DNA of 60,099 bases, taken from the NCBI GenBank assembly GCA_964424505.1, contig CAYRIQ010000001.1:1-60099 (forward strand). The letters are read 5' to 3'. This document shows, piece after piece, positions 11,479-53,695 of this stretch; position 1 is the stretch's first letter; the number at the start of each line of letters is the position of its first letter. This DNA comes from an uncultured Candidatus Peribacteria bacterium. GTDB lineage: Bacteria; Patescibacteriota; Gracilibacteria; Absconditabacterales; Absconditicoccaceae. The notes beneath the pieces were generated by a model. The model saw only the letters and a list, made by a program, of their open reading frames with translations, was not told where the DNA came from and made no database searches. Made by a program: the position numbers and the translations under genes.

Positions 11479-11546
11479 AAGCCCCTCTCGGCGTCTATCC
11501 CGCAAAGCGGGAATAAAGAGGGGTTAGGGGTGATGTAAAAGGGAGA
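11479..11546 (+). repeat. GC-rich palindromic element E1 (half-copy; may also terminate deoA)
   Basis: gcccctctc-ggcgtcta-tcccgcaaagcggga-ataa-agaggggt-taggggtgatg. It aligns with the 3' half of the intragenic copy at 51991-52128 read in sense. Confidence 0.7.
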
Positions 11547-12611: not shown

Positions 12612-13023
12612 ACTTATATTGTGGAAAGGTGAATATATGGAAATAGTAATTCCTCAATCTGTCCATCCTTTTCTAGTCTCTATACCACTGTTTAAATTTT
12701 TTAATTTGGGTAAGAATATGCGTATGTATTTCTCATCCATTTTTTTTTATTTTTTCAAAAGTTTTTTCAAAAACACGAGACTGATATCCATTGAGATATG
12801 ATCTTCACAAAACAACATCAATAATCCGATTATTTAGTTTTTGCTCGATATTTTGAAACATATAATATATAGTACATAAAATATTTATTTTCATAAATAC
12901 TATAAAAAAAACCTTGTAATTATCAAACCAAAAAACTAACAATAAAATTGTAATATATCTCTACGAGATGTAATTTGAACTACGTTCGTAATTCATCGTA
13001 ATTGCCAATTACGCGAATCAGAC

Positions 13024-13215
13024 AGGAGGAATCCATCCTTTTCGCTCCAGCGTCATTCCGGCAGCTTGCCCCGCAGAACTGCGTGGGTTAAGTGTTGCAG
13101 CCGGAATCCATACTACAGAAGCCAAAGAGTCTTTCAGTATGGATTCCCTCTTCCAAACATTGGCGCGGGAATGACGTCTAAGGGTTTATGGATTTCCCCT
13201 CAGGTTTAAGGGAGA
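13024..13215 (+). repeat. GC-rich composite palindromic element E2
   Basis: Nested inverted repeats: gcgtcattcc/ggaatgacg, ggaatccatact/agtatggattcc, ccgcag/ctgcg. The modules are collinear with the element at 53561-53695 read on the minus strand. Confidence 0.75.
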
Positions 13216-27980: not shown

Positions 27981-28053
27981 ACTTTGTTGCAAGTTAAAAC
28001 ATTAATATTTCAATCTTTCAACTTTTCAATATTTTAACATTCTAACTTTTTAA
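27981..28053. repeat. Periodic-word hairpin H4 3' of rpmA (TTTCAA/TTGAAA-type words, 8-nt period)
   Basis: atttcaatctttcaacttttcaatattttaacattctaac. TCAA recurs every 8 nt. Confidence 0.65.
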
Positions 28054-28056
28054 GTT

Positions 28057-28292: not shown

Positions 28293-28365
28293 TGCAAAAG
28301 TGGAAACATGGGAAAGTGGAAAAATTAAAAAATCTTTCAACCTTTCAATCTTTCAATGTTAGAAG
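28293..28365. repeat. Periodic-word hairpin H5 3' of rpmF (GTGGAAA words, then TTTCAAC words)
   Basis: aaagtggaaacatgggaaagtggaaaaattaaaaaatctttcaacctttcaatctttcaatg. Confidence 0.65.
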
Positions 28366-28392
28366 TTGGTCTTTAGTTTCTTAGTTTTCCAT

Positions 28393-49588: not shown

Positions 49589-50923
49589 TTATAATTTTTT
49601 TAGTAAATCAGTAATTATGCTATTGTACACGTTCATACCTGTATCTGTGAGTCTGAGTTTAGTTCCATCTCGCTCAATTAATCATTTTTTTTTATAAATA
49701 GATAACAAGGATTCGTAGGTAGGTACAAGCATAGGAATAAATTTTTTAAGATCAGCGATTCCTTCCCTAGTTCTGAGTCTGAGAAAAAATTCTTCAATTA
49801 ATATATCTGATTTATTCAGCACATGGACTTCTTTTTCATCGACTCGATGTCATTCAAGATATTGCTTGATATCTCATGTATTAGTTCGGCGAATGCCGAA
49901 GGGTTGAAGGGTTGAAGCGTTGAAATGTTGAAATGTTTTTGGATTGTTTATTATTCATTGCTGATTAAAAAATGAGCTCGCAGACAACCCCAATCCAAGA
50001 TAGTTTTCCATATTCCAGTAAATCATATTGTGTATAGATGCTTTACCTGCTGCAGCAAAATTTGAGATTTCATATCTCATAAGTCATGCATCTTCGATCA
50101 TTTCTTTCAAGAGCAAAAATTCCTCCATAATCTCTTCATCAGTTCCATAGTATGTCGGTGGATAAGTTACCTCACCCCCAACCTCTCTCCCATTTTTAGA
50201 GAGGAGTGACTTTCCTTCTCCATAGCTTGCCCCGTATATTTCACTGCGGGGTAATAGGGAGGGTGAGGGTGGGGTAGTATTGCTTAGTCCTTCTAGTGTA
50301 TATAAGGAAATACTGTCAACATATCCGCTTGCAAGAAATTTTTGAAAAAAATCACGTTTAAATTCATGTCGCAATTGTTTGAAACCATTTTTGCTGACTT
50401 GGAATTTTCCAAATGCAATAAAATCAAAATTGAAGACATTGTTTCCTTGTTTGAGTTTGATGAGTGATCTCAGAAACTCTACAATACTTCAGAAATTATA
50501 TGCTCTTCAAGCCAGTTTTAGAACTTCATCATCAAAACTTTGAATGCCAAAACTATATCTTAGTCTAGAAAGTTTTGGATATTTTTTATTCAATGTTTGT
50601 ACAAAGGTCAAAACTTCTTCTTCTGGATATGGATTTAATTCGATACTGAGTTCTGCTAAATCTTCAAGATTAAACTTGGTTTTTATGTATTCGATGATAT
50701 CAATGATCCTTGTAACTCACATTCTACTAGGTGTTCCTCATCCAAAATATAATGTTTTCAATGCTTTGTCTACCAAAGTATTTGCATAATGATCGATTTC
50801 TTTTTTCAATGCTATAATATAGTCATCGATTAAGGTATCAGAAGAATCTACTGGCATACTATTGAAGGAACAATAAGCACATTTGCTTGTACAAAAGGGA
50901 ATATGAATATAAAGACTCAACAT
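49589..50923 (-). CDS. hemW: Radical SAM heme chaperone HemW / HemN-like protein carrying two insertions
   Basis: LYIHIPFCTSKCAYCSF, YFGGGTPS, YEISNFAAAGKASIHN. One frame over 445 codons. It contains GC-rich element E3 and an 8-mer periodic tract. Confidence 0.85.
49898..49935. repeat. Periodic-word tract H7 inside the hemW CDS (four TTGAA words at 8-nt spacing)
   Basis: gaagggttgaagggttgaagcgttgaaatgttgaaatg, translated on the minus strand as ...TFQHFNASTLQPF.... Confidence 0.6.
50166..50277 (-). repeat. GC-rich palindromic element E3, in frame inside hemW
   Basis: gttacctcaccccc ... gggtgagggtggggta terminal inverted repeats with internal hairpins cctctct/agagagg and ccccg/cgggg. Read as NTTPPSPSLLPRSEIYGASYGEGKSLLSKNGREVGGEVT. 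Confidence 0.8.
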
Positions 50924-51830: not shown

Positions 51831-51857
51831 AGCTAAACAATTACGTTGATAAATATA

Positions 51858-53533
51858 TTATACTGTGTATACAATTTTATCGCCAATTTCCAACTCATTT
51901 TTTTTCTCAAAAGTTCCAATGACTTGGTTTAGAGAAATCTCATCATAAATATCAATTTCCGGACAATGTAATCGTGGCCTGACGAGAAGAGTTACCTCAC
52001 CCCCGACCCCTCTCCACTCTCCCGCAGATATTGACGGGACAGGCTCCGAGAGGGGTGATTTTCCCTCTCCATAGCTTGCCCCGTATATTTCACTGCGGGG
52101 TAATGGGGAGGGATTATGGGTGGGGTAATTAATTTCCATAATATACCCGATTTCTTCTTTTCATTTCCTCGCTTCTTCTTGCTCAAGTGTTTGTCTATTT
52201 ACGAGCTGTTTTATTTTAGTAAATCTTGCTCTGATCGTAGTATATTCCACTTTTTTGTCTAATTTACTTGAAGCAGCCAAAGGCTCGTCGTGATATTCAA
52301 ACAACGCGACATTATCAAATCTTGTTTCGTTGACAAACTTCATGAGTTTATCAAAATCTTTCTCCGTTTCGCCGGGGAAACCAATGATAAGATTCGTTCT
52401 AAGAAATCTAACCGGAAATATTTTTTTAATCTGATTCAAAAAATTTTGAATATATTTTTCATCGTATGCCGAATCATTTTCGAAATCTCTAATTTCTTCA
52501 TTTCATTTGAAATTATCGTTTCTCAAATTGTCGGCATTCCTCAATCATCAAAAAGAACTGCGTTTCACTTGCTCTTTTTGCGGTTGAGGGAAAAATCTTC
52601 CCATTCTTTTCAAGACCGGCGAACTGATGTGTTGTAAAGGGATATCAAAATATGGTATAAACTTTTTCAATTTTTTTAGCTCCTCGATTTGACGTAATGT
52701 TACGATGTCGGGATACAAGTAGAGGAGTCTATAGGTGAAATCACCTTTTATTCTGTCTAATTTTTTCAATAGGTCCAATAATTTCGGCTCCCCATAAAGA
52801 TCAGTTCCATATCTCGTAGTGTCTTGTGCGATAAGAATAATTTCTTGTATTCACGCATCAATCATCTGTTGTGCTTCAGTGAGAATTTTTTCTATGGGCA
52901 AAGATTGCTGTTTTCATCTGATCGCTGGGATGATACAAAAGGTACAATGATTATCACATCATTCGGCGATTTTGAGATATTCAAATTTTTGTTCCAGGTT
53001 GGTATATACCCTTGGCGAGTTAGCAAATTCAAAATCTCCAAACGTTTTACTATCGTATCATTGCATAATATTTTTCAACGTTACTGTATTCAAATCTCCT
53101 CGTGATAAGTAATGAAGGTTTCAAAGTGGTTTTGTTACCTCACCCCTACCGCAGGCAGGCCCGGCCCCCCTCTACGGAGTGGAGATGGGTGATTTTTTAT
53201 CTCCCTCTCCATACCATGGGGAGGGATCAAGGGTGTGGTAAGACTTACTAACTTTTTATAGTACTGAACTGCACATCAGAGCAAGTATACGGTCTTCTTA
53301 GCTTTCAAAAGTTTTTTCACAGTTTCGTCAGCTTCATCTCTGCCTGAAGAAATAAATCCACAAGTATTCACAAAAACTATTTTAGTTTTCGGATCAAAAG
53401 GATCGGTAAAATAGTTCAATTGATAGTCAGGAGTCTTGATACTTATATCAAAAAGTCTACCAAGAAAATATTGGCTATCGACCAGATTTTTGGTGCATCA
53501 GAGGTTGATGAGTGAAAAATTTAGTTGTTGCAT
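51858..53533 (-). CDS. rimO: Ribosomal protein S12 methylthiotransferase RimO, interrupted: carries two GC-rich elements and a frame break in one of them
   Basis: The N-terminal frame (MQQLNFSLINLGCTKNLVDSQ...) stops at TAA 53135 inside element E5. The rest ([35 protein letters not shown], TRAM tail) is in another frame, open from 53171 to TAA 51858. Confidence 0.8.
51991..52128 (-). repeat. GC-rich palindromic element E4, in frame inside the rimO TRAM region
   Basis: About 85 percent identical by eye to E3, plus an extra tcccg...gcggga hairpin. Read as YPTHNPSPLPRSEIYGASYGEGKSPLSEPVPSISAGEWRGVGGEVT. Confidence 0.8.
53134..53241 (-). repeat. GC-rich palindromic element E5 in the rimO inter-domain linker, coincident with the frame break
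   Basis: Same termini (gttacctcacccc ... gggtgtggtaag). It lacks the 30-nt ccccg hairpin module and contains a C6/G6 run at 53165-53170. Confidence 0.8.
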
Positions 53534-53560: not shown

Positions 53561-53695
53561 AAACAAATCCTCACTCTCCCCACTTTAGCGTCATTCCCGA
53601 CTTGATCGAGAATCCAAGCTCAATAGTATGGATTCCCATTTTCATGGGAATGACGCCGAGACGGGGAGGGTTGTCAAGGGTCGGGTGAGTTTGTT
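53561..53695 (-). repeat. GC-rich palindromic element E6 between uvrB and rimO
   Basis: cctcactctcccc ... gggtcgggtgag termini. Inner gcgtcattccc/gggaatgacgc and gaatcca/tggattc stems shared with E2. Confidence 0.75.

Follow-up and report, generated by a model that had tools for sequence, protein, structure and literature searches.

How does a strongly GC-rich palindrome come to lie, in frame and translated, within a conserved gene of an AT-rich bacterium? This question is raised by E4, a complete short palindromic element located in the rimO gene of contig CAYRIQ010000001.1 (GenBank assembly GCA_964424505.1), of which positions 1 to 60,099, referred to here as the window, were analyzed. The best-known examples of selfish DNA lying in frame within bacterial genes come from Rickettsia. 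A first-pass annotation of the window, made by a model from the letters alone, had described E4 as a near-identical relative of a second element, E3, with an additional hairpin module, and had suggested that frame-preserving insertions are selected. The evidence presented here indicates that E4 is probably a nonautonomous, nuclease-less remnant of a GC-rich palindromic DUF559 cassette, resembling a MITE (miniature inverted-repeat transposable element) or a REPIN (an inverted doublet of repetitive extragenic palindromic [REP] sequences), and that this remnant is tolerated in a translated loop of RimO.

Results

Structure and translation of E4

Translation with the standard bacterial code (table 11) breaks every gene of the window into pieces, UGA being sense. 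The number of stop-to-stop open reading frames (ORFs) of at least 100 codons was 87 with this code and 138 when TGA was read through; this gain, together with the names attached to RimO homologues (candidate division SR1, Absconditabacterales), indicated an SR1 bacterium using code 25. With UGA as a sense codon, E4 lies in one unbroken rimO frame and is translated as (N)YPTHNPSPLPRSEIYGASYGEGKSPLSEPVPSISAGEWRGVGGEVT. Its sense strand reads TTACCCCACCC...GGGGGTGAGGTAAC, from 52128 down to 51991, and would yield peptides such as SEIYGASYGEGK, which spans E4, and SPLSEPVPSISAGEWR; there is no coding through E4 other than the host frame. The GC content of the window is ~31% and that of an island at E4 (51953 to 52126) is 56%. 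The predicted RNA fold of E4 had an energy of -81.1 kcal/mol (z = -8.2), with the whole element forming a single rod.

The terminal inverted repeats of E4 pair with each other in this fold, and the GGAGAGGGG arm plus the right terminal repeat constitutes an end unit that is conserved across phyla (coordinates are given in Table 1). Two inner modules are located in the hairpin loops, the left one, CCCCGCAGTGAAATATACGGGGCAAGCT, in hairpin 1 and the right one, GGAGCCTGTCCCGTCAATATCTGCGGGA, in hairpin 2. These modules base-pair together in the minimum-energy fold, and the left one could be aligned to the reverse complement of the right one. The extra hairpin module of the first-pass annotation is therefore real but is not an add-on: the right module is the inverted-repeat partner of the left one, and E4 is a nested, fuller palindrome, the right partner having been lost from E3 as indicated by the fold and the alignment. 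The canonical SR1 element is 91 to 93 nt in length (e.g., L001:5806-5897), lacks the two extra modules of E4 and consists, in order, of the left repeat TTACCCCACCC, hairpin 1 (CCCTCCCCAT...ATGGAGAGGG), an A-rich spacer, hairpin 2 (CCCCTCTC...GGAGAGGGG) and the right repeat GGGGGTGAGGTAA. The right module was also detected without the left one in P0122 (a long copy at the rimO site of E4), P0003 (a short copy at the same site) and P0243 (at the HemW site of another SR1 genome).

A word-indexed protein search with the 47-residue E4 peptide returned no candidate with three common 5-mers, and neither Pfam nor NCBIfam had a model matching this peptide or the canonical ones when E values of up to 10 were allowed. 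For Rfam, no family matched E4 at the gathering or E-value thresholds, the matches obtained being spurious ones of microRNA precursors to long hairpins.

Position of E4 in the RimO protein

The structure of RimO was modeled with AlphaFold on the basis of an alignment of 85 sequences; the modeled sequence was P0002, identical to this protein except for W at UGA codons. The strands at residues 304 to 313 (...IGYIMEI) and 359 to 364 (TLLVRP) were predicted with confidence, while the E4 residues between them were coil with a predicted local distance difference test score (pLDDT) mostly below 50. The model matched the Thermotoga maritima RimO structures 2qgq, which we take to be the radical S-adenosylmethionine (SAM) plus TRAM fragment of this protein, and 4jc0 over 375 to 386 alignment columns (Foldseek). 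As Pfam calls no TRAM domain in these SR1 RimO proteins and the sequence alignment to PDB entry 4jc0 ends short of the C-terminal domain, assignment of this domain rests on the model and on Foldseek. On this basis, E4 is predicted to occupy the first beta-hairpin loop in the TRAM-like domain at the C terminus of RimO, in agreement with the earlier placement of E4, in frame, within the TRAM domain.

Occupancy of the E4 site among RimO orthologues

When ~125 RimO sequences from SR1 and Gracilibacteria were compared, the E4 site was found to be empty, short or long. Most orthologues were without the E4 insert, and many had a loop of 3 to 4 residues (EIDKGILVVRP-like; e.g., P0015, P0018, P0022, P0037 and the syntenic L005). 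Short elements of the same family occupied the site in P0003, P0006, P0010, P0014, P0039 and P0241, and a long form was present in P0001, P0007, P0062, P0090, P0102, P0121 and P0122. In the long form, a DUF559 domain (PF04480; E = 2.5e-31) is located between a start of the type PTLNPSPL.GEG... and an end of the type ...SPL..WRG.GGEVT. The host flanks of P0254 were identical to those of P0007, with the DUF559 part gone and a 24-residue remnant left, and this pair appears to represent a long-to-short conversion in situ. Among the long copies, DUF559 identity (73 to 91%) rose and fell with RimO identity (64 to 85%), a pattern that fits a DUF559 ORF that is old in rimO, vertically inherited and still constrained.

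Ancestral host sequence was considered as an origin of E4 and was rejected.

Association of the end units with DUF559

The AlphaFold model of the DUF559 domain had 3hrl as its best Foldseek match, followed by 3r3p, E = 6e-5, template modeling (TM) score of 0.81. The latter structure is the catalytic domain of the homing endonuclease I-Bth0305I. Residues D45, E56, H62 and D71 were invariant in an alignment of 84 DUF559 sequences, and D58 was near-invariant. The structural match to 3r3p agrees with a published classification in which Vsr, DUF559 and 3r3p are grouped together (PMC3424549) and with the description of the EDxHD family, which includes I-Bth0305I (PMC3239194).

Six DUF559 genes from other phyla (39 to 62% GC) were chosen arbitrarily and their surroundings inspected. 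Five were bracketed by end units, one of them with a degenerate left unit, and the sixth had different GC-rich hairpins. The bracketing pattern was TACC(C)TCACCCC-NN-CCCCTCTCC-loop-GGAGAGGGG on the left, with its mirror image on the right. A whole DUF559 cassette was present in frame in leucyl-tRNA synthetase (LeuRS), both in standard-code bacteria (L010 and L088) and in SR1 (P0126 to P0130), and hairpin-encoded extensions were observed on 18 of 114 DUF559 proteins.

The 3' end pattern GGAGNGGGGNNGGGGGTGAGGTAA was detected on at least 120 metagenome contigs with GC contents ranging from 32% to 67%. The search pattern needed one arm only; among the matches listed, the complementary arm was present just upstream in 102 of 115 distinct copies, and 13 of 122 copies lay within long spanning ORFs. 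By reading of the sequences, the hosts of such copies included isoleucyl-tRNA synthetase (IleRS), QueA, AroA, PriA, an aminotransferase, a penicillin acylase and LeuRS; two further hosts, RsmE and a resistance-nodulation-division (RND) pump, were confirmed by Pfam.

The inner junction of the short form, GGAGAGGGAAATAAAAAATCACCCCTCTC, was found at no fewer than seven, that is, at least 7, different SR1 loci, mostly intergenic and either just after stop codons or in spacers. Judged by these sequences, the short form is an independent repeat that propagates as a unit. A strict two-end DNA pattern applied to species-representative genomes detected 3 SR1 loci, this pattern being too strict for other phyla and the genome of the window evidently not being included. 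A 32-column element profile run against 1.84 billion representative proteins gave 14 matches, among them several spurious ORFs lying across arrays of repeats; since orthologues that carry an insert are hidden by the clustering at 50% identity, this result is no census.

Several cassettes had individual features. In the LeuRS cassette at L010:5790-6560 (minus orientation), ~8 tandem 43-nt left hairpin units, all in frame and with GEGSNLNPEVPS repeated, were located between the left end and the nuclease ORF. The related genomes L131 and L134 (~40% GC) carried a DUF559 cassette in the trpB-trpA spacer of the tryptophan operon, and the degenerate ends of the cassette in L134 suggest an old insertion decaying in place. 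P0179 and P0193 had DUF559 with hairpin-encoded linkers in an apparently in-frame fusion to a type I restriction enzyme R subunit, this label deriving for P0179 from reading of the sequence after the domain and for P0193 from the source name alone.

Other copies within the window

The window contains three full and two partial copies of the E family (Table 1), with E3 and E4 separated by 1.85 kb. The claim that E3 and E4 are homologous beyond low-complexity GC runs was upheld: they have an exact 35-mer in common, against 0 in 100 shuffles, and a 65-nt block at 94% identity, are ~94% identical over ~100 nt in all and can be aligned pairwise over nearly their whole lengths. Both are translated as ...LPRSEIYGASYGEGKS...GGEVT, as had been proposed from the reading of the core and end, with the coding of PRSEIYGASYGEGKS common to both. 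E3 is without the right-arm module. Its site was empty at the syntenic locus L005 and was filled by a variant copy in another SR1 genome (P0243). An independent Joint Genome Institute (JGI) assembly from another sample was 99.93% identical to the window over 18.2 kb, with E3 and E4 identical, so that these elements are not assembly artifacts.

Table 1. Location of E4, its parts, its host gene and related copies in the window
Feature	Position	Strand	Remarks
E4, complete short palindromic element	51991..52128	minus	138 nt = 46 codons
Left (sense 5') terminal inverted repeat of E4, TTACCCCACCC	52118..52128	minus	Pairs with 51992-52003 in predicted fold
Right terminal inverted repeat of E4, GGGGTGAGGTAA	51992..52003	minus	GGAGAGGGG hairpin arm just before
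Left-arm inner module of E4, CCCCGCAGTGAAATATACGGGGCAAGCT	52073..52100	minus	Encodes PRSEIYGAS; exact match in E3
Right-arm inner module of E4, GGAGCCTGTCCCGTCAATATCTGCGGGA	52020..52047	minus	Extra hairpin module of the first-pass annotation
rimO, host gene	51858..53533	minus	ATG 53533-53531, stop 51858-51860
E3, sister copy	50166..50277	minus	In frame in HemW/HemN-like radical SAM gene (49589-50923, minus)
E5, same family	53134..53241	minus	rimO linker between N-terminal UPF0004 domain and radical SAM domain
Solitary right-end unit	11479..11538	plus	Hairpin CCCCTCT...AGAGGGG, then TTAGGGGTGATGTAA; intergenic, without left end
Degenerate left-end fragment, TCACCCGACCC...CCCTCCCC	53650..53690	minus	uvrB-rimO spacer

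The third full copy, E5, occupies a second rimO site (site A, in the linker after YYKKL), at which copies were also observed in P0003, P0012, P0025 and P0001, read as ITPPLIPPHGMEREIKNHPSHT.WRGAGGEVT. In the window, the rimO reading frame is disrupted within E5, where 4 nt are deleted near 53144 relative to a sister strain (GGTAGG[CAGG]GGTG). As a result of this deletion, the N-terminal rimO frame reaches the TAA of the terminal repeat (53135-53137), and rimO falls into two ORFs, an N-terminal one of 132 codons and a C-terminal one. The sister strain (L126, 99.93% identical) has E5 intact and in frame and encodes a RimO protein (P0255) of 559 residues. The window and the sister strain differ over the 18.2 kb by two indels and five substitutions in all; the E5 deletion is one of the indels, and the sole other length difference is an (AT)2 indel at 51853-51856, directly 3' of the rimO stop. 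The deletion stems either from an error of assembly or from an inactivation that is very recent; the sister-strain and orthologous copies show that E5 is normally in frame.

The extra module of E4 had also been reported from the half-copy at 11479. This was partly borne out: at the start of the unit (11485-11502), 15 of 18 positions agree with the right module of E4, after which each has a different small CCCG...CGGG hairpin. The pattern CTCTCGGNGNCTNTCCCG gave two matches against 0 expected, having been derived only after both copies had been seen.

Preservation of the reading frame

E3 and E4 were said to read the left terminal repeat in different phases with a compensating 2-nt difference, and this was confirmed. 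The codons of the repeat are TAC CCC ACC C in E4, against (AC)T ACC CCA CCC in E3, after which E4 continues with the spacer ATAAT and E3 with the spacer TCA; through this 2-nt difference, both return to the phase CCC TCC CNA TTA CCC CGC AGT GAA.

Complete intergenic SR1 copies had lengths of 91, 91, 92, 92, 93, 93, 127 and 134 nt, representing all three residue classes, whereas all of the intragenic copies surveyed alongside them keep the ORF, with the exception of E5 of the window. Orthologous copies at site A use a third entry phase (ITPPLIPPH...), one that would lead the canonical element into the TAA of its right repeat; with 1 nt more in the loop of hairpin 2, these copies return to the GGEVT exit phase and avoid the TAA. 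Independently ascertained intragenic copies are few, and a test for lengths divisible by three is blurred by insertion boundaries that are not fixed to the base. The proposal of selection for frame-preserving insertions is strengthened by the third-phase copies, the intergenic length classes and the sister-strain E5; with the frame of rimO broken by E5 in the window, preservation of the frame is not absolute.

Neighboring genes and unrelated inserts

Genes of the minus strand follow one another as uvrB, rimO, a gene for an Fe-hydrogenase-like protein and the HemW/HemN-like radical SAM gene; an identical order was found on two further SR1 contigs, L004 and L005. In the window, rimO holds three inserts: E5, E4 and an unrelated one of 42 codons. 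The latter, FPQPQKEQVKRSSFGGLRNADNLRNDNFKGNEEIRDFENDSA (52467-52592, minus strand), is in frame between MGRF and YDEKYI and has no kinship with E4; it is missing in 103 of 116 orthologues, is found in a few close relatives and is predicted to be disordered. The HemW-like gene also has a second insert, QQGIINNPKTFQHFNASTLQPFGI, of 24 codons (49892-49963, minus strand), which is missing from the orthologues on L004 and L005. This insert looks like a translated short repeat of the TTCAAC/TTGAAA type, of which there are spacer copies at 2180-2220, 27997-28056 and 28331-28367.

In other SR1 lineages (P0004 to P0120), the RimO loops after YYKKL and YIMEI contain many unrelated short inserts, e.g., QQVKGGRWKVEGKSSSLVPSSSFPQ, QGQGTRTQ... 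and NPPSFPPLTKE..., so that both loops act quite generally as sinks for repeats inserted in frame. Another family of GC-rich palindromic repeats, with the motifs GTCATTCC...GGAATCC and CAGTATGGATTCCC, is present at 13010-13160 and 53590-53655; one of its copies adjoins the degenerate E-family fragment upstream of rimO.

Discussion

Origin of E4

The presence of E4 in rimO would be explained by the following series of events. The end unit is a hairpin of the CCCCTCTCC/GGAGAGGGG type with a GGGGGTGAGGTAA tail, and in the full-length form two such units, mutually inverted, enclose a gene of ~110 codons for a DUF559 (Vsr-like, EDxHD-type) endonuclease. In an ancestor of this SR1 clade, a cassette of this form may have settled in the loop that joins strands 1 and 2 in the TRAM-like domain at the C terminus of RimO. 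The nuclease ORF would then have been lost, or the copy replaced by an already shortened one, leaving the two hairpin units fused. With end units that are stop-free in one sense frame, encoding a Pro/Ser/Gly-rich peptide, and with a surface loop as the site, the remnant could be translated as a disordered loop of 46 residues. Frame-keeping variants alone would persist in a functional gene, and these would be supplied by indels of 1 to 2 nt in loops and spacers, of which the intergenic lengths of 91, 92 and 93 nt are a visible trace. The near identity of E3 and E4 most likely arose from recent copying or gene conversion between resident copies, as these elements are exactly identical over a module that was not seen in other genomes. 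Two fresh insertions are disfavored because the module is shared and because both host sites are filled by differently composed copies in other SR1 genomes. Judging from the architecture and from analogy to REPINs with their REP-associated tyrosine transposases (RAYTs) and to homing endonucleases, the DUF559 nuclease may mobilize hairpin-ended DNA, in cis or in trans, via repair of a break or nick. E4 itself appears to be without function for the host.

A number of observations weigh against this account. Among the matches listed for the 3' end pattern, an inverted partner was present within 700 nt in 12 of 115 distinct copies, most being solitary units in spacers, and a DUF559 gene was nearby at only 3 of 120 loci. 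The 60-kb window contains no DUF559 gene, so that a nuclease acting in trans in this genome is not demonstrated, and we know of no biochemical activity for this DUF559 subgroup. The insertion points in LeuRS of SR1 and of L010 are close and not identical, which fits a permissive site as well as homing. Long and short forms at one site could also have arisen by repeated independent insertions rather than by decay in situ. Finally, TA is present at both element boundaries, possibly as part of the repeat, and would fit a transposase of the IS630/mariner type as well; the empty rimO orthologues are only ~60 to 70% identical, and no clean junction of empty and filled sites or target-site duplication could be established from them.

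A broader form of the cassette explanation, which we regard as possible rather than probable, is that a DUF559 gene with two hairpin-plus-GGGGGTGAGGTAA ends constitutes a distinct pan-bacterial selfish cassette that is not an intron, an intein or an insertion sequence (IS). Such a cassette would live in essential genes by means of stop-free Pro/Ser/Gly linkers, with the nuclease as an internal domain of the host protein; elements of the E4 type would be REPIN-like derivatives copied in trans, and the whole would be a major source of loop variation in SR1.

In the literature searched, which was not complete, we found neither the motif nor elements of this type in SR1 described, nor any DUF559 cassette whose palindromic ends are conserved. 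The present case extends the phenomenon of in-frame selfish DNA to a bacterium of a candidate phylum whose genetic code is altered and ties short repeats to a candidate enzyme, DUF559. If this link is causal, a very large family of "unknown function" gains a role, a GC-rich hairpin repeat that is very common across phyla is explained and endonuclease cassettes are able to persist in essential genes without splicing machinery. Gene calls in metagenome-assembled genomes are also inflated and broken up by inserts of this type, as for rimO of the window, and the indel-prone sites that such inserts create can switch genes off.

Alternative explanations

The alternative that survives best, though we consider it unlikely, is that E4 is an ordinary MITE moved by a DDE transposase (e.g., one that is IS630/mariner-like and duplicates TA), with DUF559 as a mere passenger and with frame preservation reflecting survivorship, as in the Rickettsia palindromic elements (RPEs). 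E4 is small and multicopy with terminal inverted repeats, TA was present at both boundaries in all of the copies examined and DUF559 is missing from most copies, all of which would be in line with such an origin. However, random passengers would not be expected to lie exactly between end units in five of six arbitrarily chosen cases from unrelated phyla, no transposase adjoined any copy in the inspected loci and the nucleotide sequence of the end unit is conserved over a GC range of 32% to 67%.

Co-option of the insert by the host, either as a flexible loop altering contact of RimO with its substrate or as a hairpin, in RNA or in DNA, that controls rimO expression or acts as an indel switch, appears improbable. 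The very stable mRNA hairpin (-81 kcal/mol), the filling of the site in several lineages and the 4-nt indel in E5 that turns rimO off in one of two near-identical strains would be consistent with such a role. Against this, the insert is missing in most orthologues, many of which have unrelated inserts in the same loop; the peptide is predicted, with low confidence, to be disordered; and the repeat is also found in unrelated genes and in spacers.

Removal of the element as an intron, as an intein or by translational bypass, such that it is absent from mature RimO, is still less credible. The terminal repeats do bring both junctions together in a long hairpin, production of full-length RimO from the window would need such a mechanism on account of E5, and ribosomes bypass GC-rich palindromes inserted in the AT-rich mitochondrial genes of yeast; in the sister strain, however, E5 is in frame, and the compensating indels that keep intragenic copies stop-free and in frame would be needless if the element were removed. 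A group I or group II intron was rejected, 138 nt being far too short and Rfam giving no family match, and an intein was likewise rejected, since the insert has 46 residues, far too few, with no Hint domain and no Pfam or NCBIfam match.

An assembly or binning artifact that joined a foreign GC-rich piece to an AT-rich contig would account for the jump from ~31% to ~56% GC over the element but can practically be dismissed, as an independent assembly of another sample has the same E3 and E4, related copies are present at the same sites in many independent SR1 assemblies and the host frame runs on through the element.

Comparison with known systems

With the cassette remnant as the preferred explanation, E4 can be compared with several known classes of element. 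The closest likeness in behavior is to the RPEs (Ogata et al., 2000), which, as far as they are summarized in PMC10969869, are palindromic repeats of ~100 to 150 nt in a small AT-rich genome, are found both in intergenic spacers and in frame in unrelated housekeeping genes, and are translated there at apparently permissive places. The in-frame hosts of the E4 family are RimO (two sites), HemW, RsmE, LeuRS, IleRS, QueA, AroA and PriA. There is no sequence relationship between the two, none of the models of NCBIfam (expected to include RPE peptides) or Pfam matching E4. The E4 element also differs in being strongly GC-rich in an AT-rich genome, in having end units that are conserved across phyla and in belonging to a family with a full-length, DUF559-encoding partner. 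To our knowledge, RPEs have no nuclease-encoding full-length partner.

E4 resembles MITEs, e.g., those of the Correia type or those derived from IS630, in its length of 138 nt (MITEs being smaller than ~300 to 500 bp), in encoding no mobilizing enzyme of its own, in its pairing terminal repeats (TTACCCCACCC/GGGGTGAGGTAA) with TA at the boundaries, in being dispersed (3 full plus 2 partial copies in 60 kb, with more in other SR1 contigs) and in being an apparent internal-deletion derivative. It differs in that the longer partner with the same ends encodes a PD-(D/E)XK, Vsr-like DUF559 nuclease and no recognized transposase; moreover, many copies of the family are single end units rather than paired ends, and no target-site duplication could be demonstrated. 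The REP/REPIN-RAYT system shares with the E4 family a short GC-rich hairpin with a conserved tail, occurring singly or in inverted doublets that fold into a longer structure, and a gene situated between two inverted units. In the E4 family, DUF559 takes the place of the HUH tyrosine transposase, the sequence motif is another one and elements occur in frame inside genes as well, whereas REPs are extragenic; no RAYT was present among the called genes of the inspected loci.

The DUF559 protein of the long partner has the same fold as the EDxHD homing endonuclease I-Bth0305I and, like it, is found in conserved housekeeping genes, but known members of that group are located in group I introns, in inteins or as free-standing genes and have NUMOD or helix-turn-helix (HTH) DNA-binding regions (PMC3239194). 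The long partner has neither an intron nor an intein, its ORF is translated within the host protein and its hairpin ends are conserved, while E4 is without the nuclease. That similar sites in LeuRS and RimO are occupied repeatedly is no more than suggestive of homing.

Inteins and mini-inteins are likewise in frame in conserved proteins and exist in long forms with an endonuclease and short forms without one, in parallel to the long element and E4. E4, however, has neither a Hint splicing domain (at least ~130 residues) nor the junction residues, and even mini-inteins are far larger than its 46 residues; Pfam detected DUF559 and related nuclease families in the long form, and no Hint domain. 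The E4 insert most probably stays in the RimO protein. The GC clusters and byp elements of yeast mitochondria are also mobile GC-rich palindromes of AT-rich genomes, some of them inside protein-coding genes. These yeast elements are organellar, and byp elements, over which the ribosome skips, do not have to keep the frame, whereas in the E4 family the reading frame is conserved.

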